A stretch of 61,631 nt of DNA, the filler included. It is 5 parts of 5 records of this genome, joined end to end, with 100 filler letters (N's around TTAATTAATTAA, not from the genome) between each part and the next. Parts side by side here need not be neighbours in the genome. Positions count along the whole stretch, not along the records: positions 1 to 23,309 come from SRR22947727_2647; 4 more parts are not named here. One strand, written 5' to 3'. Positions 14,113 to 38,740 of the stretch are shown one piece after another. Below the pieces are notes generated by a model. It saw only the letters and a list, made by a program, of their open reading frames with translations. It made no database searches and was not told the origin of the DNA. Position numbers and translations under genes: made by a program. Each line of letters begins with the position of its first letter. The first letter of the stretch is position 1.

Positions 14113-14589
14113 ATGAGTTTATCTGAGAGACATTTCTTGTTGGTAATAATAAGCTCATTATTTTTGATGTCGTCTTGTGCTGTTAATACGGTGGGCTCTG
14201 CGCCAGAAGAAAATAAGTTTGTCCATATTGATGAAACCCCAGCATATGTATTAATTGAAACAGGTAAATCTTTAGAGTTAATTAATGATCATATATATAT
14301 TTGTTTAGCGGAAGTTGAAGGGAAAGCTAGAAGTATCAAAACCCCTATGAAAGTTGTTGGCGGCATTTATGGAGTTGCAGGATTAGTAGCCTTAATTGAC
14401 CTAGCTACCACCGGAGGAGTTATTTCTTCTCTTTTAATACCTGGTATGGCTGTATTTACTGCTGCAGCATGGGTGACTTATGCCTCTGCAGATGCAGTCT
14501 CTGAGTTGGGTGAATATAAAAATTTAGAAACTTGTCTTGAAGGAAAGGGTTATTCAGTCGTATTCTTTTTAGAGGAAAATAAAAGATAA
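14113..14589 (+). CDS. Hypothetical lipoprotein with hydrophobic Gly/Ala-rich hairpin
   Basis: Signal peptide ending in LMSS-C lipobox; central Gly/Ala-rich hydrophobic segments flanked by two Cys; C-terminal CLEGKGYSV. Confidence 0.65.
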   Translation: MSLSERHFLLVIISSLFLMSSCAVNTVGSAPEENKFVHIDETPAYVLIETGKSLELINDHIYICLAEVEGKARSIKTPMKVVGGIYGVAGLVALIDLATTGGVISSLLIPGMAVFTAAAWVTYASADAVSELGEYKNLETCLEGKGYSVVFFLEENKR

Positions 14590-14631
14590 TTATTTAGTTA
14601 GAACAATTGAGACTAAATGATATCTGTCTTG

Positions 14632-14655
14632 GTATGGTTTTGCATACTAGTATGA
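14632..14655. promoter_or_regulatory. Putative HxlR/DUF24 operator, copy 1
   Basis: GTATG-GTTTTG-CATAC-TA-GTATGA; palindromic, 21/24 identical to 23286-23309. Lies just upstream of a candidate promoter, TTGCTA(14669)-N16-TATATT(14691). Confidence 0.65.
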
Positions 14656-14783
14656 TTACTTTGCCTACTTGCTATTATCTTCTCTATGTCTATATTGTGT
14701 GGCATAAATAAAGTTAATACATAACTTTTTCAAGCCCTTAATTCTGATGATTGAGAGTTTATTAATCACTGATAGGAGGCAAA

Positions 14784-16082
14784 ATGATCAGAAATATAAT
14801 ATTAAATTTTTTAAAGACTGCCTCCAAGATTAAAGAGCGAGAAGTTAAGGCTGTTGTTTTTTCTTTTTTATTTGTGGTTGTCTTAATGTCAGCATATTAC
14901 ATCTTACGACCAGTTCGTGATGCTATGGCTAGTGATTGGACTGATGCAGAGGTCAGTTGGTTGTGGACCTTAAATTTCTTTATTAGTACGGTAATCGTAG
15001 CCCTATATGGCATTATGGTTTCAAAGTTTCGTTTTCGATTATTAGTACCAGCTATGTATGGTATTTTTGCAGGCTCTTTCATTATTTTTTATGTCTTAGG
15101 GTCCATATATGAAGATAGAATATTAATTGATAAAGCATTCTATGTTTGGGTAAGTGTATTTAGTCTTTTTCATATCTCTGTTTTCTGGAGCTTTATGTCA
15201 GAGCTTTTCAGCAAAGAACAATCAAGCAGATTATTCGGAGTTATTGCAGCTGGTGCTAGTGTTGGAGGCCTCATTGGACCCTCTATAACAGCTATCTTTT
15301 CAGTATCTTTAGGCACTGACAAACTAATGTTAATAGCAAGCACTATGCTATTAATACCAATACCAATTATTTTCTTCCTACAATCATTAAAAACAAAAGA
15401 ATTAAATAATGAGGTATTGAATACGCCCATTTCCAATCAATCAATTGGTGGTAACCCACTTGCAGGTTTTAAAATGTTCTTCTCAAACCCTTATCTCTTA
15501 TCGATTGGCGTGTTTATTCTTCTATATACCGGCATTAGCTCATTTGTTTATTTTGAGCTAAAAAATTTACTAAGTGACTTCAGCCGTCCCGAGAGATCTG
15601 TTATCTGGGCTCAAATGGATCTTGCAGTAAATATCTTAGCGATCTCCACTGGATTATTTGCAACTGGCCGAATTGTTACTAGATTTGGCATGCCTGCAAC
15701 TATTGCAATGGTACCAATAATAATCTGTATTGGTTTGCTGATATTGGCTATTTCACCTTTGTTAGGGGTGGTTATGATATTGCAGATTGTTCGCCGTGCA
15801 GGCAACTATGCAGTGACTCGACCTGCCCGTGAGATGTTATTTACACTTGTTAATCAAGAAACTCGGTTCAAGGCAAAACCTGTTATAGATATTGTTGCTT
15901 ATCGTGGCGGCGATATGATTACTGCATGGTTATTTACTGGGCTTACACAAGGCTTGGGGTTAGGTTTGGCAGCAGTAGCTGCTATTGGGGCAGGAATAGC
16001 TGGATTGTGGACACTGGTAGGAATTTATCTTGGAAGATGGTTTGAGCGCGATAATGACAATTTTAAGAATTCCAAAACATAG
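14784..16082 (+). CDS. MFS-fold transporter of the ATP/ADP (NTT/AAA) nucleotide-carrier-like family
   Basis: AYYILRPVRD, FYVWVSVF...SVFWSFMSELF...RLFG, RPAREMLF...RFKAKPVIDIVAYRGGD motifs; about 12 TM segments; AGGAGG RBS. Confidence 0.8.
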   Translation: MIRNIILNFLKTASKIKEREVKAVVFSFLFVVVLMSAYYILRPVRDAMASDWTDAEVSWLWTLNFFISTVIVALYGIMVSKFRFRLLVPAMYGIFAGSFIIFYVLGSIYEDRILIDKAFYVWVSVFSLFHISVFWSFMSELFSKEQSSRLFGVIAAGASVGGLIGPSITAIFSVSLGTDKLMLIASTMLLIPIPIIFFLQSLKTKELNNEVLNTPISNQSIGGNPLAGFKMFFSNPYLLSIGVFILLYTGISSFVYFELKNLLSDFSRPERSVIWAQMDLAVNILAISTGLFATGRIVTRFGMPATIAMVPIIICIGLLILAISPLLGVVMILQIVRRAGNYAVTRPAREMLFTLVNQETRFKAKPVIDIVAYRGGDMITAWLFTGLTQGLGLGLAAVAAIGAGIAGLWTLVGIYLGRWFERDNDNFKNSKT

Positions 16083-16172
16083 ATAATTTGTTTGCATACA
16101 AGATCTAATTGAGGCATCGTAATAAAGATTGAAATACCTTATATATTAAAAAATAACTAACGGATTAACACC

Positions 16173-17273
16173 ATGAAACATTTATCAATTATTAAAACTT
16201 TTGTATTTATTCTGGCTTATAGCTCTTTTGCAATAGCAGACCACCATTCTAGTTCTGAGCATGGCTCTAAAATAAAATATGTTAGTTACAACCAAATTGG
16301 TAATCCTGCAGAAGTGCTTGAGGTAAAAACAGAGGCCTTGCGTGAACTAAAGAGTGGTGAAGTTAGAGTCAAAGTATTGGCCGCACCAATCAATCCTTCC
16401 GATGTATTACAAATAGCCGGTATGTATGGTGTTGATGCTGTTTTGCCTGCAAGACCAGGTAGTGAAGGCGTTGGCCGCGTAACAGAGATAACACCAGAAG
16501 TTAATAGTTTAAAAGTTGGTCAGTTAGTCCTTCTTGCTAGTGGTAGTACTTGGGCAGAAGAATTAGTAGGCCCATCTGCAGGTTTTTTACCTTTGCCTAA
16601 CTTAGGTCCTATCGGTGCTGATGTAATCGAACAGCTTGCAATGTCAGCTGTTAATCCATTAACCGCATTACTTATGCTTACTTCCTTTACAGATATTGAA
16701 GAAGGTCAATGGATTGCACAAAGCGCGGCTAATTCAGCAGTTGGGGGTTATGTAATTCAGCTAGCAAAACAGAGAGGCATAAAAACAGTCAATATCGTTC
16801 GTCGTGAAGGTTTGGCTGATGATCTAATGGCCAAAGGAGCGGATGTTGTTTTAATTGATGGACCAGATCTTGCCCAACAAATTGCAGAGGCAACAGGTAA
16901 TGCACCAATCATGTTAGCACTAGACCCAGTTGGCGGTGATACATATGGTCGTTTAGCAGACAGTTTAGGATATGGCGGTACCTTGATTACTTATGGAGCG
17001 CTATCAGGAAAACCGGCAACACTTAATACAGGAAAAGTTATTTTCAATGATACTCATTTGCGAGGTTTTTGGCTTTATAAGTGGTATCAGACAGCTACTA
17101 TGCAGGACAAGCAAGAAGCTTTTGGACAGATAATCCCACTTATTGCAAATGGCACTTTAAAGGCCAATATTGACTCGCGTTTCACAGTTGATCAGATTGA
17201 AGAAGCAGTGACTCGTGCTTGGTCAGGCGGTAGAAATGGAAAGGTGCTTATTGTTCCAAGTCCTATAGAATAA
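16173..17273 (+). CDS. Zinc-independent MDR oxidoreductase (2-enoyl thioester reductase/MECR-like) with N-terminal signal peptide
   Basis: AAPINPSD...GMYG, PGSEGVG, VNPLTA, AANSAVG, GFWL and GKVL motifs. N-terminus MKHLSIIKTFVFILAYSSFAIA|DHH looks like a Sec signal. Confidence 0.85.
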   Translation: MKHLSIIKTFVFILAYSSFAIADHHSSSEHGSKIKYVSYNQIGNPAEVLEVKTEALRELKSGEVRVKVLAAPINPSDVLQIAGMYGVDAVLPARPGSEGVGRVTEITPEVNSLKVGQLVLLASGSTWAEELVGPSAGFLPLPNLGPIGADVIEQLAMSAVNPLTALLMLTSFTDIEEGQWIAQSAANSAVGGYVIQLAKQRGIKTVNIVRREGLADDLMAKGADVVLIDGPDLAQQIAEATGNAPIMLALDPVGGDTYGRLADSLGYGGTLITYGALSGKPATLNTGKVIFNDTHLRGFWLYKWYQTATMQDKQEAFGQIIPLIANGTLKANIDSRFTVDQIEEAVTRAWSGGRNGKVLIVPSPIE

Positions 17274-17282: not shown

Positions 17283-18140
17283 ATGTCGATTTGGAATGAT
17301 TTGACCTGGGTTGAGGATATTAGGTCTCATTTCTTATCTATTTTCTTTGATACCATTTCATTGGCTGGATACCCAACATTTTTAATACTATTTATCTCAT
17401 TTGGTTATTTTTATTGGTCTCCATCCAGATTCTCTAGAGTAGCAATGATGTTGTTTATATCAGGCTTAATAAATGCTTTTCTTAAAGATTTCTTCCAAGA
17501 TGCAAGGCCTGCAATTGAACTAATGCTAGATCCAAAAGTTGGAACCTCCTATGGATGGCCTAGTGGACATTCTCAGATTGCAGTTACTCTTTGGGGCCTG
17601 CTTGCGTATGAATTAAAAAATAAATGGGCAACCGTTGGAGCAATTACAATAATAATATTAATTGCTTTTAGCAGGATGTATTTAGGAGTCCATGATCTCG
17701 GTGATGTTTTTGCCGGATTAATTATTGGAGGAATAATTCTTTTAATTTGGCACTATGCTGTGATTAATAATTGGTATGAGAGCTTATCTAAAAAATCTTG
17801 GCTAATGTTAATACTTATTTTTCAATTAATACTCTATATTTTATATCCATCGCATGAAGATCATGAACTCAGTATATGGTTTTTAGGAGTAATGACTGGA
17901 TGGTTTATTGGAGCTTCAAATATTAATGTAATTTCCAATCCTGTAAAAAAGCTTCTAACATCAATTTTTGCTATTCTTATAGTCTTCTTTCTTTTAATAG
18001 TTATCACGAAGATAGAAAGTGGGATAGGTACCGCAGGACTGTTTGGGTTTATAACTAGCTACTGTCTTGGCATGACTTTTTCAATTTTAGTAACTTGGGT
18101 AATTCCACGTTTTTTGAGATTAGCGAGACTAGCTTCATAA
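17283..18140 (+). CDS. PAP2-family membrane phosphatase
   Basis: KDFFQDARP, WPSGHS and SRMYLGVHDLGDV motifs. Confidence 0.9.
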   Translation: MSIWNDLTWVEDIRSHFLSIFFDTISLAGYPTFLILFISFGYFYWSPSRFSRVAMMLFISGLINAFLKDFFQDARPAIELMLDPKVGTSYGWPSGHSQIAVTLWGLLAYELKNKWATVGAITIIILIAFSRMYLGVHDLGDVFAGLIIGGIILLIWHYAVINNWYESLSKKSWLMLILIFQLILYILYPSHEDHELSIWFLGVMTGWFIGASNINVISNPVKKLLTSIFAILIVFFLLIVITKIESGIGTAGLFGFITSYCLGMTFSILVTWVIPRFLRLARLAS

Positions 18141-20740: not shown

Positions 20741-21487
20741 ATTAATAAAGTTGCTTTAATTACCGGAGGGTCGTCAGGAATAGGCTTTGCCTATGCAGAG
20801 CATCTAATTAAAAAAGGTTGGCACGTTCAAATTGTCTCTAATGACAAAGGAAGATCCTTTGATGCTATTAAAAAACTTAACAGTCCAAATGTTAAAAACT
20901 TTATCTATGACCTAACAAAAAAAGATTCAATCTCTAAGCTTTATGATGAGGTGGATACTCCTAATTTATTAATTGCTTGCTCTGGCGTAGCTACTAACGG
21001 AAAAGCTGAGACATACTCTGATCAAGAGAAGAGCGATGCTTATTATTTAATGTGTGGTGGCGTAATTGATCTAATTCAAAAGTTCATACCAAAATTATCT
21101 GCACAAAATAATAGCCGCGTAGTAATAATTTCAAGCATAGGTGCAGTAACCCCAATGCCAAAATCATCAATTTATTCCAGTGCTAAAGCAGCTATTTATG
21201 CATATGGCAGATCTCTTAATGCTGAGTTAAAAAACATAACAGTCACTGTATCCTTACCCGGGTATGTCAGAACAGATATTCATAAAAAAGCTGGCCTTAA
21301 TCATCTTGAAAGAAAAATACCTTCATGGATGTGGATAGATGTTAATAAAGTCGTAATGGAAACTGAAAGAGCATCGCTTAAAGGAGATAGCTATGTAATA
21401 CCTGGCATTATTTATAAGTTAGCAAGGCCATTTCTAGGATCCAATGTAGCAAATAAAATATGGAGATTTCTAAGTAAAAGAAATTAG
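20741..21487 (+). CDS. SDR oxidoreductase; true start is upstream of the called ORF, probably ATT at 20741
   Basis: The open frame upstream of GTG 20951 encodes INKVALITGGSSGIG (Rossmann motif). There is no in-frame ATG/GTG/TTG back to the TAA at 20699. AGGAG lies 8 nt before ATT 20741. Catalytic YSSAK is present. Confidence 0.75.
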   Translation: MNKVALITGGSSGIGFAYAEHLIKKGWHVQIVSNDKGRSFDAIKKLNSPNVKNFIYDLTKKDSISKLYDEVDTPNLLIACSGVATNGKAETYSDQEKSDAYYLMCGGVIDLIQKFIPKLSAQNNSRVVIISSIGAVTPMPKSSIYSSAKAAIYAYGRSLNAELKNITVTVSLPGYVRTDIHKKAGLNHLERKIPSWMWIDVNKVVMETERASLKGDSYVIPGIIYKLARPFLGSNVANKIWRFLSKRN

Positions 21488-22951: not shown

Positions 22952-23284
22952 TTATCGATTATCAAAGATATTCTGCATCACATCTTTATTGTCTGTTCCC
23001 CATTTACACCAAGAATCCAATATTGGCCCTAAAGATAAACCAAATTCAGTTAGAGAATATTCAACTTTAGGAGGAACAACCTCGTAGACTTTTCTTATTA
23101 CCAATTGATCTCTTTCCATTTCACGTAACTGCTTTGTAAGCATTTGCTGAGTAATTGGTGCGAGGACTTTTTTAAGCTCACCGAATCTTATTGGGCCTTT
23201 TCTCAAATTATATGTAATAGCAATTTTCCATTTACCGCCAATAAGCTTAAGTGAATTGGTAATGGGACAATCAATTTTATTCAT
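22952..23284 (-). CDS. HxlR/DUF24 (MarR-type) transcriptional regulator with N-terminal Cys
   Basis: CPITNSLKLIGGKWK, RFGELK, ITQQMLTKQLREME and VPPKVEYSLTEFG. Confidence 0.92.
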   Translation of the reverse strand: MNKIDCPITNSLKLIGGKWKIAITYNLRKGPIRFGELKKVLAPITQQMLTKQLREMERDQLVIRKVYEVVPPKVEYSLTEFGLSLGPILDSWCKWGTDNKDVMQNIFDNR

Positions 23285-23409: not shown

Positions 23410-24464
23410 GTCAAAGTGAGTAAACTTAAGCTTACGAACGCACAAACAAATACAACTGCAAGCTCACTCATAGAGGCTGTCTCAAAAACAAACCCGCCTA
23501 CAAACCACCAAACGTATACGGCAAAAGCTTCTGTTGCCAACAAAGGCGTCAAAAATCTTGCTAGACTGATCCATCGACTCTTCTTCGAGATAATTTCGTC
23601 AATTTTCTCGGCATTATCATGTAAGTGCTGTATCTGTGAACCGGACACTAAAGCTAGCTGGCCGGGTACGACACCTACCGGCGAAGCAACTTGCCTTGCC
23701 AATGCAAAAAGCCCCAGCCTCTCGGCTGGAGGCGAACACGATGCCACGATTGTATCTATTTTTTGACCCATTGCCTTGATCACTGTACTGGCCCAGCCCA
23801 TAAAAACAAAGAAAATAACCGGCGCATGAATTGTGAAATACGACTTGAGCACCCCTTTCGGCTTTACTATCGAAAAGTCACCATACCCCGTCTGAAGAAA
23901 TACAAACAATGAGACAAAGAGCAACAATACGGTCGCCCAATAAATTCCCGATACGTCCCAACCATTGAGATATATCGCCATAAAAGCACAACACTTAAGA
24001 ACCACCCCAATCGTCAGAAGCTGGAAATACAAACGCATTCTTTTCGTAATTTGGCATACGCCGAGAGAAAAGCTTCGCGCCACCTCAGCCATTGAATACG
24101 TGAATACGAACGTCTAAAGTTCTGTGATTGGTCCGTTATACTCCAATTTTTCAGCGACCAAAGCCACCAAGATTAAGGCTCCAATTACCAATAGCATGTC
24201 GCAACACGCCAGCGCAGTAGACGATACAGCTCGAAACTGCCCGCTCAGAGTGACAAATTTATATTGATATTTGACCAGCATCTCATTCGGGCGAATAGAT
24301 GCTACGGCCATTATCACAGACGTGGTCGATATAATTAGTGAGTAAGAGGCAACCGCGTCAAGACCCTGCATTAGGTTCAGCAGGTGCACTGCCAGAAAGC
24401 CAACCCCGATATTTGCAATTGTGAATGAGCGGTGATGGCTAATTAGTGTTAAAGCGCGCTGCAA
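23410..24464 (-). pseudogene. Wzx-like polysaccharide flippase with in-frame TAG, 3'-truncated by contig end
   Basis: ORFs 24114-24464 and <23410-24092 share one frame; TAG at 24116-24114 is followed by TFVFTYSMAEV. Multi-TM protein with a LGLFALARQVASP flippase-like segment, in a polysaccharide operon. Confidence 0.6.
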
Positions 24465-24466
24465 TC

Positions 24467-25318
24467 CTATGCTGGCCTTATCAACAATATCCGATGACCC
24501 AGGAAGCCCTTTCCGAAAAGTGTGAGCAATTTTGACAGTCCGAGGGATGAGAGGAGGTTTCTAAGTTTCTTGTATGTGCCCTCCTTAATAATATATTTGC
24601 GCGGGTTCTCCACCTGCAGCTCCCTGACGTCAACCGTTTTGAAGCCAATTGACTCAGCGAGCTTGACGAAGCCCCTGTATGTAAAGTAGTGCATGGTGCC
24701 TAGTTGCTGACGCCCATTTGCGCCATCGGGCTTCAGTTTACCAGCCGCTTTCAGCAGAAAATCGGCTAGAGACAAGGGTAAAAAACAGATAAATGGCATC
24801 TTATAGTGCGGATCAACTAAGTGAAATCGATTTGGCACGGTGAGGTAACACCTCCCACCCGGCCTCAAAGCATCGAAAATGTTATTTAAGGCTGCGCTAG
24901 GATCTTCAACATGCTCTATCACATCAATCATTACCACCGCATCGTAACGCCCGACCAAGCCCGGCAGCATCTCCACCGGAATCATTTTTGGCGCTCCCTT
25001 TATAGAGTCTCTTTCGTAAAAGTATTCGACAATGCGAAAATAAGGCTCGAACGGCTCAACGGCATCAATCGTACAGTTGCGCAAGTATTTATGTAGCCTT
25101 GCAATCAGGCCACCGCGCCCAGCGCCAATAACTAATAGAGAATTTACAGGCTCGGCGTCCAACTTCAAAAGAGCACTTATCAGCGCTGCCACGTGTGACT
25201 GCGTGTTTTCCTCGTTGACATAGCTGAGAACGCGCTGCTTGTCACCCGAGAAAAACTGGTTGCTGATATCTAATAATTTGTCATTCAAAGATTGCCTCCC
25301 ATGGAGTGAATACAGCAA
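24467..25318 (-). CDS. Class I SAM-dependent methyltransferase (polysaccharide cluster)
   Basis: LVIGAGRG, DVIEHVEDP, LRPGG and VPNR. Confidence 0.85.
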   Translation of the reverse strand: MLYSLHGRQSLNDKLLDISNQFFSGDKQRVLSYVNEENTQSHVAALISALLKLDAEPVNSLLVIGAGRGGLIARLHKYLRNCTIDAVEPFEPYFRIVEYFYERDSIKGAPKMIPVEMLPGLVGRYDAVVMIDVIEHVEDPSAALNNIFDALRPGGRCYLTVPNRFHLVDPHYKMPFICFLPLSLADFLLKAAGKLKPDGANGRQQLGTMHYFTYRGFVKLAESIGFKTVDVRELQVENPRKYIIKEGTYKKLRNLLSSLGLSKLLTLFGKGFLGHRILLIRPA

Positions 25319-25332
25319 TTATTGGATCGTCA

Positions 25333-26430
25333 TCAAGCCACGCAACGCTGTCTACTCTCACAAAACTCTATAATTTTTTTTGCGCGTCCAACCCATGTAT
25401 ATTGCTGCCGAACTTCTCGAAACGCGTTATTCGCTTTTTCTTCGGCAGTCTTTTTCTGCGACTTTATCTGGCTCAGCGTCGCAGCAATGCTACCCTCAAC
25501 AGATTCGTCATATAAAAACGCCACCCGATCGCTCACCACTTCGGCCAAGGAGCCCCGCGTGGTCGCAGCAATTGGCACACCACTTGCCATATATTCAAAC
25601 AACTTAAGTGGGCTCGTGCACCAGTTCATAGGCGACTCGTCACTATTCATGAGTAATAAACAATCTGCGGCTTTTTGGTACCGTATCGCAGTCTCGTGGG
25701 GAACTCGGGGTTTAACCACCATCCTTTGTGGGTCAGCCGGCTCAAGAAACTTTTTGAGTTGGAGAACCTCATGCTCTGACCCGCCAATATGAACAAGAGT
25801 GACTCCATTATCCTCACTAATAACATCCCTCAGCACGCCCCAGCCTCCTTTGTAAAGGCTGCCGGTGTGAACGACAACCCAGGCATCCGCTTCAATGCCG
25901 AGATCCCTCCGGAGCCCTGCTTTATCACGCGTCAAACCATCGATGAAATTTAAATCTACACCATCATGAGCGACTAAAATCCTCGTCAATGGCATGGGGA
26001 AATTATCATTTACATAGCTTCTTAGCGCGCCACTGATCGTCACAATGATGAACCTCGGTTGACAGCACAATATCGTCAAAATAGCACGCACCAATCGCGA
26101 TGAAACGCCTTGGTGCAGTTCGTAAACGACGCGCGCTCCGACTACTGCAGCTGCGGCCGCCGCAACTATATCCCTGGTATAAAAGGTGGCTTTTCGGTTA
26201 CGAGCAGAGTAGGACAAGCTTAAGCAAAAAGATCTCAGCCCAAACATCCATAACCCCAAGAGCGCAGGCATTCTCGCCCACTTTGCTGAATTAAACTTAC
26301 CGGGCAGAAGGTGAAATACAAAGTCGTCACCCAAGACGTCGGCGAAAGCGCGCCTCATTGCTCCAACCTGTATTGACTGAGCACTTTGATGCGCTGGGTT
26401 GACTCTAGTCAGATAAACTAATTTATGCAT
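25333..26430 (-). CDS. Glycosyltransferase family 4
   Basis: YELH, HDGVD, HTGSL and SPLKLFEYMASGVPI. Confidence 0.88.
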   Translation of the reverse strand: MHKLVYLTRVNPAHQSAQSIQVGAMRRAFADVLGDDFVFHLLPGKFNSAKWARMPALLGLWMFGLRSFCLSLSYSARNRKATFYTRDIVAAAAAAVVGARVVYELHQGVSSRLVRAILTILCCQPRFIIVTISGALRSYVNDNFPMPLTRILVAHDGVDLNFIDGLTRDKAGLRRDLGIEADAWVVVHTGSLYKGGWGVLRDVISEDNGVTLVHIGGSEHEVLQLKKFLEPADPQRMVVKPRVPHETAIRYQKAADCLLLMNSDESPMNWCTSPLKLFEYMASGVPIAATTRGSLAEVVSDRVAFLYDESVEGSIAATLSQIKSQKKTAEEKANNAFREVRQQYTWVGRAKKIIEFCESRQRCVA

Positions 26431-26525
26431 CTATTATGCTCAAAATTAATACTACAGCTGCGTTAATTCGATTAATGCATTCAAATCATCAGCTTTAGAG
26501 ACTCGCCGGATCTAAAATTAGAGCA

Positions 26526-27695
26526 TTAAGCATCCTTTCTGAATAGATCCCTTGTATATAACTTGCCTTGAACGTCATCGAGCTCCAAATCATTCCTATT
26601 CGCGACTATTAGAGAGGACCTATTTTTGAACTCCTCCAAATCTCTAATGACAGGGGACCCAAAGAAAGAGCTATCGACTATGGCAGGCTCATACACAATA
26701 ACGTGAACGCCCTTGGCTTTAATTCTCTTCATCACACCCTGAATACTAGAGTCACGAAAATTGTCGGACCCGGCCTTCATGACAAGCCTGTATATGCCCA
26801 CACAGGTTGGTTGTTTTGCCAAAATCTGCTCCGCAACAAAGTCTTTTCTTGTTGTATTCGACGAGACGATGGCGTGGATCAAATTCTGGGGCACATTGGA
26901 GTAATTCGCCAACAGTTGCTTAGTATCCTTTGGCAGGCAGTAACCTCCGTAACCGAAGCTTGGGTTGTTGTAGTGGTCACCGATTCGTTCGTCTAGCGAA
27001 ATTCCGGATATAAGCGCCTCAGAGTCCATCCTTTTCGCTTCAGCAAATGTGTCTACTTCGTTAAAGTACGCCACCCTCATAGCCAAATAAGTATTTGCGA
27101 ACAGCTTGACGGCCTCAGCTTCGGAACTTGACATTGTCATTATGGGGGCGTTGTTTTTGTGGCATGAAGAATGGAACAGGTCAGCGATCAGTTTAGTGCC
27201 AGGCTCCTCTCCACCAACAATTATTCTGCTAGGGTTCAGACAGTCCCAGAGAGCAGTGCCCTCTCTTAGAAATTCGGGACTAAAGAAAATTCTCAAGTCC
27301 TCAAATTTCTGAGCTAAAGCATCAGTGTAGCCGACGGGTATCGTTGACTTGATTACGATATCCGGAGTTCGGTTAATAGATGAGACTTCAGAAACAATAT
27401 CCTCAATCGACTGCGTATCAAACTGGGCGGTGTCCGCATTGTAATTCGTGGGTGTTGCAATCAGAAGTATGTCACAGTCTTGGACCGCGATATCTAGGTT
27501 TGAAGTAAAGGTCATCGAACCTTTAACCGTTTCGTAAAAAGACGGCATCATACTGTCGTCAATGGGCAATCCCCCTTGACTCAACAACGCAACTTTTGAC
27601 TCATTAATATCGCAGACCACAACCTCATTCTTTTGGGCCAACATCATAGCGTTAGCCAGCCCTACGTAGCCTGCACCAGCGACAGTAACTTTCAT
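26526..27695 (-). CDS. ugd: UDP-glucose 6-dehydrogenase
   Basis: [40 protein letters not shown] and YTRDLF. Confidence 0.93.
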
Positions 27696-27936
27696 TTTAA
27701 ATTTCCTAATTTACGACCTACCATGAGCTACGCTGCAATTTCGACGTCAAAATAGCGAGACCTTCACTCGCCACCGCGGCACAGATGTTCATTTCTGGTC
27801 GCCGCCCACTGGAGGGCTCTGATCAGGTTATGTTCTCGTGGGGCTATATATGCGGTGACTACACAATTGGAGCCTGCAAGAATTGCAGGGCGATGCAGCA
27901 TTCTGCAACAGCTGACGACCGATACGCTTATCTTTA

Positions 27937-28911
27937 TTAATGACGGGGGTACTGGTTGCGGTATTCTCTAAGCCAGGCTACAAATTTGGGTACGCCGTTT
28001 TCAACGGGCACTTTGGCAGCATAACCGATGCTTTCGGCCAGGCGTGTGGTATCACAGAACGTGGCTGGGACATCTCCTGGTTGCATCCCTTGGTAATGCT
28101 TTACCGCCTCCGCTCCAACCGCTCGCTCAACCTCACTGACGAAATCCATCAAATTTACGGGCGCGCCACAGCCGATATTAAATACCTGATGGCCACCGGC
28201 GAAGGAGCCGATTTTGGACGCCAACCCAATCACACCATCGACAATGTCGTCTATGTAAGTAAAATCTCTGGACATGGCGCCATTATTAAATACTTTGATT
28301 GGCTTACCTTCGAGGATGGCCTCAGCGAATAACCAGGGAGCCATATCAGGTCGACCCGCCGGTCCGTATACAGTGAAGAATCTGAGCCCACACGCATTGA
28401 GAGAATATAGCTTTGAGTATGACTCAGCCATGAGCTCGTTAGCTCGCTTAGTCGCGGCATATAAAGAAGCGGGATTATCAACCCTGTCTGCCTCTGAAAA
28501 AGGGACTTTTTTGTTAGTGCCGTATACCGAACTTGAAGAAGCATAAATAAGGTTGACTTTTTTGTGCCGACAGCCCTCTAAAATAGTCATAAAGCCCGTT
28601 AAGTTGCTATCGGTATACTCGAATGGTTTAGTTATCGAGTGTCTCACTCCGGCTTGCGCTGCAAGGTGTATAACAAGGTCGAAATCAGTGCCGCCGAAAA
28701 TTTCTTCCATGCCGCGCCTGTCGGAAACGTCGAGTCTTTGAAATAAAAAATTATCCATGGTCTCGAGTTGCTCCAAACGAAACTGCTTGAGCTTGACGTC
28801 GTAGTAGGAATTCAGGCTATCAACACCAACAACAGAGTGGCCACACTCCAGCAATCGCATGGATACATGCATCCCGATAAATCCTGCGGCACCTGTCACT
28901 AGCATTTTCAA
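27937..28911 (-). CDS. UDP-glucuronate 4-epimerase-like NAD-dependent epimerase
   Basis: TGAAGFIG, HLAAQAGVR, YASSSSVYG, YAATK, RFFTVYGPAGRPDMA and RDFTYIDDIV. Confidence 0.9.
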   Translation of the reverse strand: MKMLVTGAAGFIGMHVSMRLLECGHSVVGVDSLNSYYDVKLKQFRLEQLETMDNFLFQRLDVSDRRGMEEIFGGTDFDLVIHLAAQAGVRHSITKPFEYTDSNLTGFMTILEGCRHKKVNLIYASSSSVYGTNKKVPFSEADRVDNPASLYAATKRANELMAESYSKLYSLNACGLRFFTVYGPAGRPDMAPWLFAEAILEGKPIKVFNNGAMSRDFTYIDDIVDGVIGLASKIGSFAGGHQVFNIGCGAPVNLMDFVSEVERAVGAEAVKHYQGMQPGDVPATFCDTTRLAESIGYAAKVPVENGVPKFVAWLREYRNQYPRH

Positions 28912-29350
28912 CGCTCTTCTCCTACCTTAGCGGACTGCCAGCCCCCGGTTTCGTTCTTGAGCAAGTTCATTCGTGCCTTTTAGAAAAGTAGTCAGCACGC
29001 TATGTGGTTGCAATGGTTAATTTTTGCCAAATTATAAATTTTGTCCATCTCATTTTTGAGCAACTTATAATTTACTTTGTTTCGATAAGAGCCAGCATCA
29101 CTCCTCGTTTTGGAGGCCAATGATAGTAACTATGGAGGTCAACATATATTGCTTTTTTTGCTCGATGCTTGATTGGCTCGGAACAGCGTCTATATAAAAG
29201 CACCCGCAGGACCTGTTACGCCTAACTGAAATTTTCGATAACGCCCGTTATCGCCAGTAAACCGCCCCGCAAACCCCAATTTTCTTGACACACGGCCTTC
29301 ACCATTGAGTGGATAGTCATTTTGACCGAGAGGGTCCGATTGATTCTTCG

Positions 29351-29686
29351 CTAACCAGATGGCCGGGCCGATTCTTCCACATCTGCTTGCAGCGCCGCTA
29401 TTTCAGCTTTTAAAGTTTCGTACTCAATCAGCTTTCGCCCCAAAAAACGCGTCGTCAGTCGGGTTTTAGCCGCTACGCCCATAGGTGTCAGCAAATATAA
29501 ATAGCCCAGCTTATTTGGATTGCGCTGAAAGTTCTCTAACTTCAGCCACCCCTTTTCGACCAAGGCTTTTAGGCAGTAATTGGTCGCCCCCAAGCTGACC
29601 CCGAGCGCTTCTGCGAGCTCGCGCTGGGTCATCTTAGGATTGGCTTCGAGGCGGCGCAGGGCCTCAAACTGGCGTTCTTCAGACAA
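29351..29686 (-). CDS. MarR-family EPS-associated transcriptional regulator
   Basis: TQRELAEALGVSLGATNYCLKALVEKG...NKLGYLYLLTPMG signature; located at the head of an EPS operon. Confidence 0.9.
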   Translation of the reverse strand: MSEERQFEALRRLEANPKMTQRELAEALGVSLGATNYCLKALVEKGWLKLENFQRNPNKLGYLYLLTPMGVAAKTRLTTRFLGRKLIEYETLKAEIAALQADVEESARPSG

Positions 29687-29805
29687 TTGATTTTTTCTTT
29701 TCAGCGATTCCAGAGATTTCGGACCGTCACGATGTACACTAGCCTCCGAATAAAATACTCAAGCCCGGCTTTTGCTCTGCCCTACCGATAATTAAAAGGA
29801 ACAGG

Positions 29806-29817
29806 CACGCTACCGCA
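29806..29817 (-). promoter_or_regulatory. ops element (RfaH loading site), JUMPstart-like
   Basis: Minus strand TGCGGTAGCGTG versus ops consensus GGCGGTAGnnTG; preceded by hairpin GGGCA-CTCTA-TGCCC; rfaH is the adjacent gene. Confidence 0.82.
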
Positions 29818-29832
29818 GGGCATAGAGTGCCC

Positions 29833-29874
29833 GTTCAAGTCATGAACACTACTCTGTTCAGCAAATGAACGCAA
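29833..29874 (-). promoter_or_regulatory. Sigma70 promoter overlapped by two GTTCA-N5-TGAAC operators
   Basis: -35 TTGCGT (29874-29869), 17-nt spacer, -10 TAGTGT (29851-29846); palindromes at 29833-29847 and 29856-29870. Confidence 0.7.
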
Positions 29875-30048
29875 TGGAAAAACCCTGCATAATTCTGCAT
29901 CCTGAGGCTATTCACTTACGCTGCCATTGGTCAGAGCGCATTCAACCAAGGCTAAGTTCAAAGTCGCACGCGCAGGACTCAAGAGAAGTGAAGGGCTGAA
30001 AGCACTCCAGCAATATCTGCTATCAATCGCTCCATTGTTAGTGAGCAC

Positions 30049-30579
30049 CTACTTGATCATTTCGTCAATGCTCACAGTAATACGCTGGTCCTTACCCAGC
30101 AGTTGCAAGAGCACCTGTACGCGATCCCCGCCGCGGGCCATGTCGAACACCGCCTCAATGCCGGCAAAAGGGCCCGATACAAAACGGACTTTGTCGCCAG
30201 GCTTAAAGGGTGCTTCGACATCATTGGTCTCAGATTCAATAGTCTGCAAACTTTCAATGAACTCTACGGGAACTGGCGTATAAGCATGAGCGAAGCGCAC
30301 CAGCCCTATGCAGCCAACCGTAGATCGAATGGGCGCAGGGTCATCTTCACCAAGCTCGAGCGCGACAAATAAATAGCCGGGAAACAAAGATTCAGTGACC
30401 ACCTGCCAATGACCTTTGCGTCTTTTTTTTAAACTGAGTTTTGGCAAAAAAATACTATAGCCCTGGCGCTCAAGGTTGACCCTAGCCTTCTCCTCTTCAC
30501 GGGTCTTCGTAGCAACCACATACCAGTTGGCCCGGGCATAGTCGCGATCTTCAAATACTTTTTGTGAGACGAGGGTCAT
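30049..30579 (-). CDS. rfaH: Transcription antiterminator RfaH (NusG paralogue)
   Basis: WYVVATK...EEKARVNLERQG, ESLFPGYLF, IRSTVG, and KOW domain PGDKVRFVSGPFAGIEAVF...RVQVLLQLLG. Confidence 0.88.
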   Translation of the reverse strand: MTLVSQKVFEDRDYARANWYVVATKTREEEKARVNLERQGYSIFLPKLSLKKRRKGHWQVVTESLFPGYLFVALELGEDDPAPIRSTVGCIGLVRFAHAYTPVPVEFIESLQTIESETNDVEAPFKPGDKVRFVSGPFAGIEAVFDMARGGDRVQVLLQLLGKDQRITVSIDEMIK

Positions 30580-30816
30580 AGGTTGTGCGTCTTAAGTCGC
30601 GTTTATTCGAGGCGTCAGCCGATGTACGCAGCTTACAACAACGGGCTGATTACCTAGCAAGGTTATCAATTAAATGTCAGATTGAGGCCAAAAAAAGTAA
30701 GTTTGTCCTTTATTGATGGGAAATAAAAATATACCTGCATAAATGGTAATAGTACTGCAGAAGTAGAGGCTAGCTCATCATAAGATTTGCATTCAGATTA
30801 AGGGCCTTACCAGCTG

Positions 30817-32004
30817 ATGTCGCCATTATTACTACAATCGTTGACTGCTTTTTTCGCCACGTTACTTGCGGTGGTGCTGTTAGCGCGGGCAGCTCCAGTG
30901 TTAGGCCTCACCGACAAACCCTCAAGCCGTAAACGGCATCAGGGTGAAGTGCCAATGGTAGGTGGCATCGCTATATTTATCGCTTTAAGCATTGCGGGCA
31001 CGCTGTGGGGTAACGCGAACCAAACCCTCATCACAGTCAATGGCAATGACGCTCTGTGGGTTTTCATGGTGTGTGGCGCCTTTTTGGTTCTGACGGGCAT
31101 GTTGGATGATCGGTTCCAGCTTGGCGTGTTTATGCGGGTACTGTCAGAGGTGATGGTAGCCATTGCGGTGATTGAACTGCTTGACTTAAGGGTTGCCCAG
31201 CTCGGCGATATCTTTGGTGTAGGTTTGATCAAAATAAACCCCATACTGGCCTACCCTTTCACCGTAATCGCCATATTTGGCATTATTAATGCCTTTAACA
31301 TGCTTGATGGCATGGATGGCCTTCTCGGTTCGATGGTCATTACGACCCTGATCATGTTCCACCTATTCACCGGCACCGTGCCGGGCTTTGTCAGCCTCGC
31401 GATTGGCGCTGCACTGGTGGCTTTTTTGGTGTCCAACCTCAATTTATCGCCGATTATCCCCAAAACATTCTTGGGCGATGCCGGCAGCAAGCTGCTGGGT
31501 TTTATTGTGGTGTGTTTATTACTCGCGGCGGCCTCGGCTCAAGTAGGGCAAAGCAAGCTCATCCAGCCGGTCACCGCGTTGTTTATTGTTGCACTCCCGC
31601 TTTACGACATGGTGTTTACCAGCCTCCGCCGCATTATTCGCAAAGGGTCACCCTTTGCAGCAGATCGATCGCACATTCACCACCTCATGCAAGACTTGGG
31701 GTTTTCTGATCGGCGCGCTTTGGTGCTCATTTTGGGCATTCACCTTTTTGTGACTTTTCTGGGGCTCATGCTTCATAGAGCTAGCACACCTGAATATTTT
31801 CAACTGGCTATATTCATGGGCTGCTTTGGGCTTTATAGCCTCATGGCAAGCCAGATGTGGCTAGTCGCAGAGCGTCTTCAAACCTCGGAGCAGGCAATAC
31901 CTGTGCGAGGTGAGAACACTGACACAGACGGCGAGTCAAATACTGCGGCCATTGACAGCAGCGGTCGTCACAACATCAGGCAAATCGACAAGCGTCCCTG
32001 GTAG
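30817..32004 (+). CDS. wecA: WecA-family undecaprenyl-phosphate GlcNAc-1-P transferase
   Basis: DKPSSRKRHQGEVPMVGG, LDDR, NAFNMLDGMDGL, FLGDAGS and PFAADRSHIHH. Confidence 0.88.
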   Translation: MSPLLLQSLTAFFATLLAVVLLARAAPVLGLTDKPSSRKRHQGEVPMVGGIAIFIALSIAGTLWGNANQTLITVNGNDALWVFMVCGAFLVLTGMLDDRFQLGVFMRVLSEVMVAIAVIELLDLRVAQLGDIFGVGLIKINPILAYPFTVIAIFGIINAFNMLDGMDGLLGSMVITTLIMFHLFTGTVPGFVSLAIGAALVAFLVSNLNLSPIIPKTFLGDAGSKLLGFIVVCLLLAAASAQVGQSKLIQPVTALFIVALPLYDMVFTSLRRIIRKGSPFAADRSHIHHLMQDLGFSDRRALVLILGIHLFVTFLGLMLHRASTPEYFQLAIFMGCFGLYSLMASQMWLVAERLQTSEQAIPVRGENTDTDGESNTAAIDSSGRHNIRQIDKRPW

Positions 32005-32372
32005 CAGCTTGTGGATCAGTGAATCTAATGACTGGATGACACACCCGACCTAGCATTGCCTCGCGTATTTAGTAAGACATCACACTACCGTTCACTGCCC
32101 TCACATTGCGCTGCGCCTTGCAATCTAAATCTGAATCATTAATCTGAAAGCAAAGGTGAAGTTATTAATGTGTTGCCCAGCCCAGAAAGGCCATTTAATT
32201 TAAATATAAGATCAAATATTGTGGTGATTTTTTAGCATATTCATACTCTACAAAAAATCAAAAATAGACATTTTTAAAAATTAAGCAGCAACGTTTCAAA
32301 AGCGCTATATTAATGGCTATATTAATCGACCATCAAAAACAAAAGGCTAAAAATCTCCGAGAGGTGCTTATA

Positions 32373-32819
32373 ATGAATGAATCAGACGCGCTCGCGAAAA
32401 TTGCGCACTCCAAGGCCAGCGCTAATCGTGTTGCCAAATCGCTTAGTTCTGCTCAACTTAAAAGCGCCATCAGCAACTTGCAATCCGCCTTGAAAGCCAC
32501 TGAAGCCCGAGAAACAGCAAGAGACAGTAAACGCCGGGCCGCCAATATCAAGAAACTGGAGGCGATGATGGCTAAGATGGGTTTGTCAGCCAGCGACATT
32601 GCTGGCAAATCATCACAAAAGCCCGGCAAAAAACCAACGAAGCAATCTAAAGCTGGTGCCAAATCCAAAGTGAAACCGAGGAAGGGCAGTAAGGTAGCCC
32701 CTAAATATAAAATCACCAGCGACGGGAAAACGCATCACTGGACGGGCCGTGGTCGCATGCCGCTGGTCTTTAAACACTTTGTTGAGCAAGGTGGTTCGTT
32801 AGATCAATGCCTCATTTAA
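32373..32819 (+). CDS. H-NS family nucleoid-associated protein
   Basis: Coiled-coil N-terminus, basic linker, C-terminal PKYK...WTGRGRMP DNA-binding motif; start set at ATG 32373 with GAGG RBS. Confidence 0.85.
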   Translation: MNESDALAKIAHSKASANRVAKSLSSAQLKSAISNLQSALKATEARETARDSKRRAANIKKLEAMMAKMGLSASDIAGKSSQKPGKKPTKQSKAGAKSKVKPRKGSKVAPKYKITSDGKTHHWTGRGRMPLVFKHFVEQGGSLDQCLI

Positions 32820-33158
32820 GCGGCTATATTCAAGTTCCCCGTGATTTTTGGAGCGTATGTCGATAACCGCCTCTGATGAATAAAGGCAAGCACTAAAAAC
32901 CCATAACCCCTGAAAAATAACTGCGCCATTTATCTAATTGTCGACAACAGTCATGCTCGGACTCAGACTAACCTCAGAGGGCAAACTGTTCCTAGCAAGC
33001 TTGAGCGTGGCGTGCGTTAAAAACAGAAAGGTTTCTTTATTAAAGTGCGCCGAACTTCACCCGAAACACCGTCACGCTTTTTTTGTGTCATTTATGGAGA
33101 TGGCACCTCTGAAAGAGCGGCATACGCACTCAACGAATGAAAAAGACCATCTTCGTAA

Positions 33159-34199
33159 TCAAAAATAAGGCAATAGGTGCGCCGCACAATCCTCAGGAAA
33201 TCTCGCGCACCGAATCTCATTATTTCGGATCCGCTCCTCGAGCGGCAATCCCGCATAGCGCTCGTGAGTGTCGATGAGCTGCTCTATGCGCCAGTGCCAG
33301 CGCAGGACGTCGTTAAAGACCCAACCATAAAGACACAAACATAACGCCGTTGCGAGCAGACGATGCTCTGACGTTGTGGCCGAGCGCAGCTTTCTGACAA
33401 GCCGAAACAATGCCGCCATCAGAAGCCCCGTCACGACCAATAAATTTGCGACGGCATTGGGAAACAACATCCCATTGGCATGAATACCCCGCACAATATT
33501 GTTGGAGTATCCCTGCCAAAGCGGCGGGTTCGTCCAGTCTTCTACTATCTGCTCGATCACATTTTTTGCGGAAAACGGCCTGAACTCGATGCTGCTAATA
33601 GTGATGTCCACATCATCGTTATTCTCGAAACCCAGCGCAGGCCCGTCATAAAAAAGCAACGCTATGGACTGAATCGACCCCGAGTAGTGCTCGCCCCCAT
33701 AAACCATCGCAATTTGGGTGACTTGATCACCGCTGCGATTAAATTCCAATGCATGTGTGGTCGGGTCGCCCACCTGTTGCCACAGAATCTTGGCTTTGGA
33801 GTAACGCGTAAAACCCGACAGGTTTACTTTGATAAAGGGATAGTCCTCAGCCCGAAACGCTCTGGGCAACGCAAGAATCGCCTCGTCTCCGTTAAAGTCT
33901 TCAATGACATAACGACCGCTTTCTTTACGGCCTTTGCCCACCGACACGGGAATAAGATCAGTGCCACTGGCAGTCAGTGGGTTAGCATCTTGCCCAATGA
34001 AGGGCACAAATTCTGGGTGAATGCGATTGAAAGCAAAGGCGTAGATGATCACCAGTAGCGTCGCTGCGGCAAGAAATGCCCAAGCGGCTTCTTTCAAAGC
34101 GGGTTTCCAGATTGAGGGGCGTTTTATGGCTGCAGTGGCACCCCCTGAATCTTCAGCAGCGGCTGTTTTAAGTTGCCCTGGTTGGGGTTCACCAGCCAA
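33159..34199 (-). CDS. Hypothetical membrane protein (N-terminal TM, soluble beta-rich domain, two C-terminal TMs)
   Basis: Long ORF co-oriented with and 59 bp downstream of the Wzz-like gene; start uncertain. Confidence 0.65.
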   Translation of the reverse strand: MAGEPQPGQLKTAAAEDSGGATAAIKRPSIWKPALKEAAWAFLAAATLLVIIYAFAFNRIHPEFVPFIGQDANPLTASGTDLIPVSVGKGRKESGRYVIEDFNGDEAILALPRAFRAEDYPFIKVNLSGFTRYSKAKILWQQVGDPTTHALEFNRSGDQVTQIAMVYGGEHYSGSIQSIALLFYDGPALGFENNDDVDITISSIEFRPFSAKNVIEQIVEDWTNPPLWQGYSNNIVRGIHANGMLFPNAVANLLVVTGLLMAALFRLVRKLRSATTSEHRLLATALCLCLYGWVFNDVLRWHWRIEQLIDTHERYAGLPLEERIRNNEIRCARFPEDCAAHLLPYF

Positions 34200-34258
34200 A
34201 AAAAAGCGCTACCTAGCTTTGCAACTGACAATCAAAGGGCGACACCGTGACCACACTT

Positions 34259-35707: not shown

Positions 35708-35860
35708 GACTGCTGTCCACTGTTAAGAGGGGTAAAGTTTGCCACAGATCATTCCCCTTTCCACTCGGATTATTAACGCGTTCGCCGATGGTCATGCGGC
35801 GTTAAGCGTCAAAATTTTATATTGTGGTATTGGGCGCCATTAGCAACTTGAGCATAGGCG

Positions 35861-35899
35861 CAGCGACAGTCATAGTCATAGCCATAGCCGTGCCATAGG
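35861..35899. repeat. Degenerate intergenic hexamer repeat
   Basis: gacagt catagt catagc catagc cgtgc catagg between divergent genes. Confidence 0.55.
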
Positions 35900-36018
35900 T
35901 TTTGGAGCCACCGCTGACGACTAATACAGAAAGTAAAACGACTATTTTTCGGCTTAAACAGCGCTAAATTGCGTCTCACTGATGCACTATGAGGCCTCGT
36001 GCAGCAAGGGCACTGATC

Positions 36019-36699
36019 ATGACCACTCAAAAAATCGGGTTTTTCGGGCTGATGAAGTCGTTCGACTCAGCCGAATCGTCAATCGAAAAAATGGCCGGCG
36101 GCGGCATTCGAGCGGCCATTAAGCATGAGCTCATGCACGGCGTCACGATCGACCACCTGATCTGGTGGTTCCACAATATTGATCAGACCACCACCTTCAA
36201 CGGGCGTGGTTTTGACGGCGCGGAAATCGACGCCTACAAGCTTTGGCATCCCCACGACCACCTCAAAGTCAGATGGAAGAAGAAAATCACGGACGATAAG
36301 GGGCACATTCAACCGGGATCTGTTATCAGCATTCATGAGACCTTCGGTGGGTTTGTGGTCAATGAAAGCAGTCTCATTACGCAGTTTGATCGACAAGGCT
36401 TCCATTTTCAGATGGGGATACTTGGGTTAAAGGTTGGCCACCTGCTCCATTTTTATCAAGAAATAGACGGCGGCGTGCTCTATGAGACAGAAATGGAAAT
36501 CAAGTGCCGCGCGCCGTTTATCGGAACATTGCTGACCTGGCTTGCGTGTCGATTCTTTGCCACGGAGCCGAAGATTCGCGCTTGGATGCAGCACAACATA
36601 GAGGAATGCGGCGAAAGCGAAAAGTTCATTCCGCAGCTCTACGAGCAGAGCCGCACTGTGGATAGTGAATCACGCAGGAGCGTTTCGGCACCTGAGTGA
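36019..36699 (+). CDS. DAPG hydrolase (PhlG)-like family protein
   Basis: GVTIDHLIWWF, YKLWHPHDH, IHETFG and HNIEE...FIPQLY pattern; probable start ATG 36019. Confidence 0.7.
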   Translation: MTTQKIGFFGLMKSFDSAESSIEKMAGGGIRAAIKHELMHGVTIDHLIWWFHNIDQTTTFNGRGFDGAEIDAYKLWHPHDHLKVRWKKKITDDKGHIQPGSVISIHETFGGFVVNESSLITQFDRQGFHFQMGILGLKVGHLLHFYQEIDGGVLYETEMEIKCRAPFIGTLLTWLACRFFATEPKIRAWMQHNIEECGESEKFIPQLYEQSRTVDSESRRSVSAPE

Positions 36700-36715
36700 T
36701 CTCTCTACAGCCCGC

Positions 36716-36740
36716 AATGAGCGCTGGCAAAGTGCTCATT
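36716..36740. terminator. Hairpin between convergent genes (possible terminator)
   Basis: AATGAGCGCT-GGCAA-AGTGCTCATT; no clear U-tract. Confidence 0.4.
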
Positions 36741-36758
36741 AGGTAGCGGCAGCCAGCC

Positions 36759-37586: not shown

Positions 37587-37683
37587 GAATAATAATGCCG
37601 CTTTTATGAACGTTGCCGAACGACTCAGTACCGTGTGTCTCCGTGTTCGGCGCTAACGGTGTGACGATAGCGCCGATCTGGCA

Positions 37684-38718: not shown

Positions 38719-38740
38719 AGAGGCTTCACCAAGGTAGTGA

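Follow-up and report, generated by a model that had tools for sequence, protein, structure and literature searches.

The window analysed here is a 61,631-nucleotide stretch of DNA, positions 1 to 23,309 of which come from record SRR22947727_2647. Two open reading frames (ORFs) lie on its plus strand with 90 nt between them, at the positions given by the original prediction, a note made from the sequence alone. The first (14784..16082, 432 residues) encodes a membrane carrier of the major facilitator superfamily (MFS). The second (16173..17273, 366 residues) encodes a reductase of the medium-chain dehydrogenase/reductase (MDR) family, which begins with a putative Sec-type signal peptide. The pair sits downstream of guaB, guaA and a small lipoprotein gene. 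The proposal had been that the carrier provides the cofactor for a reductase that is exported and NAD(P)H-dependent, and that an HxlR-type regulator controls both genes; linkage and co-occurrence favour the first part of this proposal, and the second part fails. The features of the pair are as follows.

14784..16082, plus strand: MFS carrier gene, 432 residues (MFS_1, 2e-14; TLC sum of 27 bits in a near-identical gene; 9j3n, 4.9e-7)
16083..16172, plus strand: carrier-reductase spacer, 90 nt, bridged by metatranscriptome contigs
16173..16238, plus strand: predicted Sec-type signal peptide, residues 1-22, with A-I-A at its end; features kept in 66/66 orthologues
16239..16274, plus strand: variable, often His-rich linker, residues 23-34, the predicted mature N-terminus
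16275..17273, plus strand: MECR/ETR-type MDR reductase domain, residues 35-366, and stop codon (MECR, 2.9e-49; model confidence, as predicted local distance difference test or pLDDT, 92.8)

The region from 8.4 to 23.3 kb is 98-99% identical to SAR86 genome G062 (locus L068, on a 1.26-Mb contig of a metagenome-assembled genome, MAG), and the host is therefore a SAR86-type marine gammaproteobacterium. This near-identical record served as a working proxy for the window locus. The 90-nt spacer holds no terminator-like site.

Family, fold and active site of the reductase

The reductase carries the Pfam domains ADH_N, ADH_zinc_N and ADH_zinc_N_2, and NCBIfam returns only sub-threshold matches, with PIG3-type quinone reductases leading. 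Its best sequence relatives of solved structure are human MECR (2vcy and 7ayb; 2.9e-49) and then Candida Etr1p (~1e-30). An AlphaFold model based on a 136-sequence alignment has a mean pLDDT of 92.8 and shows the MDR fold over residues 33-363. Foldseek again places MECR at the top (1zsy, 7ayb and 2vcy, with template modelling scores of 0.82-0.90). The MECR/ETR-type assignment made originally is sound, as GroES-like and Rossmann domains are both present and MECR is the closest relative by sequence and structure.

Across 136 family members, conservation is at least 90% for Tyr85, the Ser188/Gly191 nucleotide motif and Arg210, an Arg that follows the second Rossmann strand. All of them align with MECR, Tyr85 with the Tyr of its G-x-Y-G motif. 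We take this Tyr to be the catalytic residue, and the nucleotide-motif residues and the Arg presumably play their usual roles as well. Judged by these residues the enzyme looks active, and nothing suggests that it is dead. It shares the Tyr and the NADPH-binding residues with MECR and Etr1p, but where they have a mitochondrial presequence it has a bacterial Sec-like signal, and it also has a His-rich linker and lacks Cys. Because thioesters of coenzyme A or acyl carrier protein are not expected in the periplasm, the substrate probably differs from that of MECR. It might reasonably be guessed to be a reactive enal, dienal or quinone of sunlit surface water, and a role in enal or quinone detoxification would be speculative.

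Predicted export of the reductase

The N-terminus of the reductase, MKHLSIIKTFVFILAYSSFAIADHHSSSEHGSKIKYVSYN, consists of a basic n-region, an uncharged hydrophobic core and A-I-A, and then the His-rich linker. No twin arginine occurs in residues 1-22. Residues 1-30 are unstructured in the model, with pLDDT below 50 for residues 1-18 and block means of 44 (residues 11-20) and 56 (residues 21-30). As had been predicted, no in-frame Met separates the signal from the catalytic domain, the first internal Met being residue 84. The in-frame GTG/TTG codons at 48, 57 and 69 lie inside the folded domain, and the signal therefore cannot be avoided by assuming a later start.

The orthologue set comprises 67 loci at 60-96% identity from SAR86, Porticoccaceae (SAR92, HTCC2207), Halieaceae (Luminiphilus, HTCC2080 and Seongchinamella) and one Spongiibacteraceae MAG. 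Under an n/h/c-region heuristic of our own, which is not a dedicated signal predictor, all 66 readable N-termini pass though their residues diverge. So do 112 of 120 metagenome orthologue clusters; the eight misses are mis-called starts with the same signal internally. In the wider family, whose full-length members reach at most 49% identity, the heuristic passes 3 of 150 representatives, one of them a fragment of the exported clade and the other two apparently false. These wider relatives are ~325-335 residues long and begin at query residue ~35. When the N-terminal columns are left out of the tree, the sequences with a signal fall into a single split (SH-like support 100). As a control, such an extension is found on none of the 16 short-chain dehydrogenase/reductase (SDR) genes of SAR86 genome G062.

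The mature part of the protein is free of Cys in 119 of 119 full-length orthologue clusters, compared with 13 of 127 full-length wider relatives (median 2 Cys). This is an independent trait that fits an oxidising compartment. The mature N-terminus is often rich in His, with at least two His among the first 14 mature residues in 41 of 66 orthologues. The predicted mature end of the window reductase starts D-H-H, His being third, and a His as third residue is a feature of amino-terminal Cu/Ni-binding motifs. The Sec-like signal of the original prediction has proved constant among the 66 orthologues and is missing from the nearest relatives outside the clade. Taken at the level of sequence, export of the reductase is strongly indicated, and the signal appears to be under selection.

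The carrier and the nucleotide transporters

A search with hmmscan assigns the carrier to MFS_1 (PF07690) at 2e-14, with 53.7 bits against a cut-off of 33.4. On the near-identical G062 gene, the TLC model (PF03219) aligns in three collinear pieces of 16.8, 14.4 and 4.9 bits, for which the tool gives a sum of 27 bits against a cut-off of 21. With a profile of 12 orthologues, the sole significant match of known structure is 9j3n, 'ADP,ATP carrier protein 1' (4.9e-7); the match after it is at 0.69. Proteins that combine an NTT domain with HEAT repeats (NTT-HEAT; PF03219 and PF13646) match the carrier at 1e-13 to 1e-16 over 66-92% of the query, and among its ESM-Atlas neighbours 44-68% of members have PF03219. 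The 12 orthologues, from three families, are 71-88% identical. A crude Kyte-Doolittle scan gives at least 10 strong membrane segments and a basic N-terminus.

The NTT/AAA-like label first given to the carrier thus reflects a homology that is weak but real, seen in the TLC pieces, in 9j3n and in the NTT-HEAT proteins. We regard the carrier as a divergent member or a sister of the NTT lineage, distantly but genuinely related, and not as a proven NTT. It appears to share the MFS-type fold of the NTT/TLC carriers (PF03219, TC 2.A.12) and is collinear with the TLC model. Known members of that group are the ATP/ADP carriers of Chlamydia, Rickettsia and plastids and the NAD+ carrier PamNTT4 of Protochlamydia. 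The window carrier differs from them in its low identity (22-24%), its shorter length (432 residues) and its free-living host. Its proposed substrate, NADP(H), is also different, and its task would be to serve the periplasm of its own cell rather than to import from a host. Major et al. 2017 (PMC5381601) describe NTT homologues of free-living bacteria as many and uncharacterised and list PamNTT4 and Chlamydia Npt1 as carriers of NAD; neither 'export' nor 'periplasm' appears in the paper.

Linkage of carrier and reductase

Upstream DNA is available for 65 orthologue loci, and at 60 of them a carrier gene in the same orientation lies within 400 nt upstream of the reductase; linked pairs occur across SAR86, Porticoccaceae and Halieaceae. 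All five exceptions still have the reductase signal. Four of these five genomes hold a close carrier orthologue elsewhere (E 1e-139 to 5e-188), which in one of them (L175) adjoins an aldo/keto reductase (AKR) with a twin-arginine-like signal. The fifth is a 1.4-Mb MAG labelled Dehalococcoidia, probably mis-binned. RNA runs that hold part of the stretch number seven. Four metatranscriptomic runs, from three studies, yield contigs of high identity over both genes. The spacer is bridged by one contig in each of two runs (X1 record 4, 15606-16369; X7 record 20, 16035-16543), and other RNA-library contigs bridge the reductase and the PAP2 gene that follows it.

The pair or a lone reductase, SAR86-like or related, also occurs in public MAGs (L009, L011, L059 and L071) whose labels read Rhodobacteraceae, Flavobacteriales (here in the first 12 kb of a 2.97-Mb 'chromosome'), Dehalococcoidia and Woeseia. 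These copies probably stem from binning or assembly errors. DJ-1/PfpI neighbours at three loci (L018, L063 and L064) were considered as further exported clients and rejected, as they have no signal peptide. In an 866-residue EukProt model (P0391), a carrier homologue (43% identity) without its first helix is joined to autotransporter repeats and part of an SDR. The model was rejected as a natural carrier-reductase fusion; a eukaryotic gene caller seems to have merged bacterial genes in it.

Remoter carriers beside other putatively exported enzymes

Carrier homologues, defined by E ≤1e-30 and with 25-57% identity, occur in 49 of 400 genomes in an even sample of Gammaproteobacteria (genome G303 is unscored). 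The loci examined are the best 49 of 56 non-self carrier hits. An AKR gene lies within ~420 nt of the carrier in 30 of these 49. At one further locus a Sec-signal SDR gene is directly upstream, and at another an NmrA-like/NAD_binding_10 lipoprotein is found; another NmrA-like protein, together with an exported redoxin, is encoded at one of the AKR-type loci. The Gammaproteobacteria counts include an unpublished genome (G349, locus L105), without which the AKR count becomes 29 of 48 loci and the number of genomes with both carrier and AKR, given below, becomes 36. All 31 carrier-adjacent AKRs inspected (the 30 and that of L175) have a twin arginine (KR in L114) ahead of a hydrophobic stretch, 16 being flagged by a strict script and 15 read by eye. 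The abstract of PMC3383694 gives the twin-arginine consensus as S/T-R-R-x-F-L-K.

In an even sample of 401 Pseudomonadota genomes the carrier is present in 24. For 12 of the 17 newly sampled carrier genomes, an AKR lies within the 4.2-kb locus, and four of these 12 have a signal-bearing PF03807 oxidoreductase between AKR and carrier. The latter are F420_oxidored/NADP oxidoreductase Rossmann proteins of ~230-265 residues (L208:653-1450, L210:2808-3593, L211:543-1346 and L212:701-1471). The exported partners of the carrier family therefore span five NAD(P) families: MDR, AKR, SDR, NmrA-like and PF03807. The co-occurrence that had been put forward as a check is positive, with 60 of 65 loci linked, both genes present in four of the five unlinked genomes, and four further enzyme families beside the carrier.

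Across the 400 genomes, carrier and AKRs of the clade with twin-arginine translocation (Tat) signals occur together in 37, the carrier alone in 12, the AKR alone in 26 and neither in 325 (odds ratio 38). As a control, 18 AKR genes were inspected in four carrier genomes. Twelve start at the domain without a signal, one is a clade member without the twin arginine, and five have a twin-arginine signal; four of these five adjoin the carrier. A FastTree phylogeny covering 71 carriers, with no outgroup and some long branches, nests the reductase-linked marine clade within carriers linked to AKRs, SDRs and a redoxin, and has AKR-linked ones to either side of its midpoint root. Given this nesting, the MECR-like partner looks like a later replacement of an AKR partner.

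Proposed mechanism

Carrier and reductase would form a conserved two-gene module. The reductase, with its Sec signal, would be exported unfolded to the periplasm and would need NADPH there, which it cannot bring along because Sec substrates cross the membrane unfolded. The upstream MFS protein, taken here as a divergent inner-membrane member of the NTT/TLC lineage, would carry NADP(H) from one side of the inner membrane to the other, most plausibly by releasing NADPH to the periplasm in exchange for NADP+. NADPH carries one more negative charge than NADP+, and an inside-negative potential would therefore favour such an exchange, as a tentative analogy with ATP/ADP exchange also suggests. In the periplasm the enzyme would reduce an activated C=C or carbonyl group before the compound enters the cytoplasm, possible substrates being enals, dienals and quinones derived from light-oxidised lipids or from algae.

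The carrier most likely moves NADP(H) because the five partner families have NAD(P) dependence and export in common. We estimate the probability that the carrier moves NADP(H) across the inner membrane at roughly 0.55. The export of the reductase, the substrate and direction of the carrier, and the substrate of the reductase are inferences as well. More tentatively, and a little short of even odds, a sizeable minority of Pseudomonadota may keep a working periplasmic NADP(H) pool by means of an NTT-like, potential-driven NADPH/NADP+ exchanger. The exchanger would serve interchangeable exported reductases, giving the periplasm a pyridine-nucleotide redox metabolism of its own, as in an organelle. 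Its clients would be the Sec-exported MECR-like enzyme in SAR86, SAR92 and OM60, Tat-AKRs elsewhere, and the SDR, NmrA-like and PF03807 proteins.

Several observations weigh against the transport of NADP(H) by this carrier. No TLC hit is obtained by hmmscan for the window carrier even at E 10, and identity to the NTT-HEAT proteins is only 22-24%; because the carrier is only marginally an NTT, homology is a weak guide to its substrate. MFS genes beside enzymes often move the substrate of the enzyme, not its cofactor. Tat-exported enzymes can bring a bound cofactor and need no supply, and NADP(H), at ~744 Da, could leak through porins. The export calls come from the heuristic described above. 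Contigs from RNA libraries may include DNA, and a bridging contig is no proof of a single transcript. At 16 of the 49 remoter loci no exported NAD(P) enzyme adjoins the carrier, and one carrier clade adjoins GMC (FAD) oxidoreductases or nothing telling. Because related genomes cannot each be taken as separate evidence, there are fewer independent associations than the counts imply, and the carrier tree suggests perhaps five partner-family events.

Also to be counted here are the Tat-AKRs that occur without the carrier. Among the sampled genomes 63 have a Tat-AKR of the clade, and 26 of them lack the carrier; no carrier lies within 3.5 kb in 20 loci (L153-L172) from AKR-only genomes. Twin-arginine signals are retained by 16 of 18 readable AKRs at these loci, with no carrier near, and the enzymes must therefore work without this carrier. 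They are of a distinct type, with Trp after the first G-x-G-S/T motif, whereas carrier-linked AKRs mostly have Arg. The Trp type is found 0 times near the carrier and 24 times without it, and the Arg type 23 times near and 4 times without, the pattern having found no motif in 15 carrier-linked cases. In the 19 of 20 loci scanned, the neighbours of carrier-less Tat-AKRs are varied (DUF6064 membrane proteins three times, N-terminally extended MsrAB twice) and include no alternative transporter.

Alternative explanations

The alternative that survives best, though we consider it unlikely, is that the MFS protein transports a substrate or product of the enzyme, for example by importing the reduced product, and that the cofactor is obtained or kept in some other way. 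Transporter-enzyme gene pairs generally share a substrate, the NTT homology is remote, and the 16 of 49 remoter loci that have no NAD(P) enzyme fit this explanation. It is harder to reconcile with partners from five unrelated families, which differ in chemistry and have only cofactor and export in common. The carrier also stays 71-88% identical across the reductase-linked clade, and its sole solved relative is a nucleotide carrier. Moreover, the source of NADPH for Sec-exported apo-enzymes would be left unexplained.

Rather less likely is that the carrier serves cofactor loading only. In that case little NADP(H) would be exported, and it would stay tightly bound to enzymes with a redox-neutral or ping-pong turnover like that of the glucose-fructose oxidoreductase (GFOR) of Zymomonas. 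A Tat-exported periplasmic enzyme with tightly bound NADP is a known precedent, and most partners of the carrier do have Tat signals, as expected for export with a bound cofactor. However, it is typical of the MECR-type enoyl reductase and AKR families that the cofactor leaves after every turnover. For Tat-AKRs loading would require no carrier, and yet nothing adjoins the carrier more often than they do (30 of 49 loci).

The linkage data apply equally to a flow in the reverse direction, in which external alcohols, aldehydes or sugars would be oxidised in the periplasm at the expense of NADP+ and the resulting NADPH imported through the carrier, letting the cell gain reducing power while the substrates stay outside. 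AKRs and SDRs are reversible in principle, and such a gain would be attractive for small-genome oligotrophs such as SAR86. We nevertheless judge it improbable, since C=C reduction by MECR/ETR-type enzymes is, from what is known of the family, effectively one-way, and importing the more negative NADPH against the inside-negative potential needs extra coupling.

Finally, it is very improbable that there is no functional link or no export. The N-terminal segment would then tether the protein to the membrane or reflect a wrongly annotated start, and gene order would be a matter of inherited synteny. Shared ancestry can keep gene order, and most loci come from related marine Gammaproteobacteria. 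Against this, 66 of 66 N-termini keep the signal features while their sequences diverge, none of the alternative starts leaves the domain whole, Cys is absent from the exported clade, four of the five unlinked genomes have both genes, and in independent pairings the carrier family accompanies Tat-signal enzymes from other families.

Regulation, flanking genes and make-up of the window

Two features border the pair.

14590..14783, plus strand: intergenic region 5' of the carrier gene, presumed to bear the promoter; no regulator site identified
17283..18140, plus strand: PAP2 membrane phosphatase gene (Pfam PAP2, 4.6e-23), 9 nt 3' of the reductase

The original prediction put the pair under an HxlR operator. 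The sole HxlR gene in the window (22952-23284) is on the minus strand, 5.7 kb downstream. Sigma-70-like matches occur at 14629-14656 and 14669-14696 (9/12 each), and they carry no weight because the scan yields 12 promoter-like sites against 15.5 expected in shuffled sequence. HxlR control of the pair was rejected on these grounds, and also because the conserved regulator is LysR-type. In Porticoccaceae and Halieaceae a gene of that type, 81-100% identical among loci, adjoins the pair on the opposite strand and just downstream (21 of the 67 orthologue loci: L041, L047, L052, L057 and 17 more). No LysR-type regulator is present beside the pair in the window or in L068.

Neither flanking gene is regarded as part of the module. 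PAP2 is kept downstream in close SAR86 relatives only (6 of 67 orthologue loci: L006, L007, L013, L014, L062 and L068). The small protein encoded at 14113-14589, between guaA and the carrier gene, has a lipoprotein-like N-terminus in which a hydrophobic stretch leads up to a Cys, and neither Pfam nor NCBIfam has a family that matches it; it too is conserved only in close SAR86 relatives. Further downstream, a 178-residue ORF with a GTG start (20951-21487) aligns with no more than the latter half of the SDR profile (position 73-80 onwards) and may be a truncated gene or a mis-called start.

The window looks composite, with breaks near 23.3 kb and 40.1 kb, and the pair lies wholly inside the first segment. 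Most of the region from 41.7 to 55.9 kb is 98-99% identical to G001, a genome of another genus, and matches G062 there at 66-84%. From 24 to 40 kb the GC content is near 0.5, against 0.35 elsewhere, and neither G062 nor G001 matches. This GC-rich block (24000-40000) codes for glycosyltransferases, UDP-glucose dehydrogenase, an epimerase, an H-NS-like protein, a TauE exporter, a MetE-like protein and MesX. We consider a chimeric contig or scaffold most likely. The reductase has no match in any of 37 genomes (G001 and 36 of its genus) and the carrier none in five of those. Loss of the pair in close kin was considered and rejected, as its absence there reflects the composite nature of the window.

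Comparison with known periplasmic systems and implications

To our knowledge, the textbook view is of a periplasm free of ATP and NAD(P)H, and we know of no periplasmic reduction that is not fed by membrane electron relays or by cofactors exported enzyme-bound. GFOR of Zymomonas mobilis is a nicotinamide-cofactor enzyme of the periplasm that is exported by Tat, and the carrier-linked AKRs likewise have twin arginines. Its NADP is non-dissociable and it needs no carrier. The window reductase has a Sec-like signal without a twin arginine and therefore, unlike GFOR, cannot take its cofactor along. DsbD/CcdA thiol relays, MsrQ-MsrP and quinol-linked enzymes meet the same need, electrons for periplasmic reductions. 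In those routes the electrons pass through membrane-protein cofactors or cysteines, whereas here the diffusible dinucleotide itself would cross.

The phrase 'periplasmic NADPH' is absent from ~8.4 million texts, and no description of such a system was found within that scope, outside of which subscription journals lie. In the available main text of a paper on Tat substrates of P. aeruginosa the string 'aldo' does not appear. Both proteins belong to known superfamilies; we found no earlier account of the system, and a prior description in the subscription literature is possible.

The implications all follow from what is inferred about the carrier. If it does move NADP(H), it would represent a new kind of route for reducing power into the periplasm, one that powers extracytoplasmic chemistry, and would give the uncharacterised NTT homologues of free-living bacteria a first function. 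Such a carrier would explain how signal-bearing MDR, AKR and SDR enzymes work outside the cytoplasm and could be useful for periplasmic biocatalysis. For SAR86, SAR92 and OM60/NOR5, which are abundant ocean bacteria, the pair would provide a periplasmic step of defence or pre-processing.

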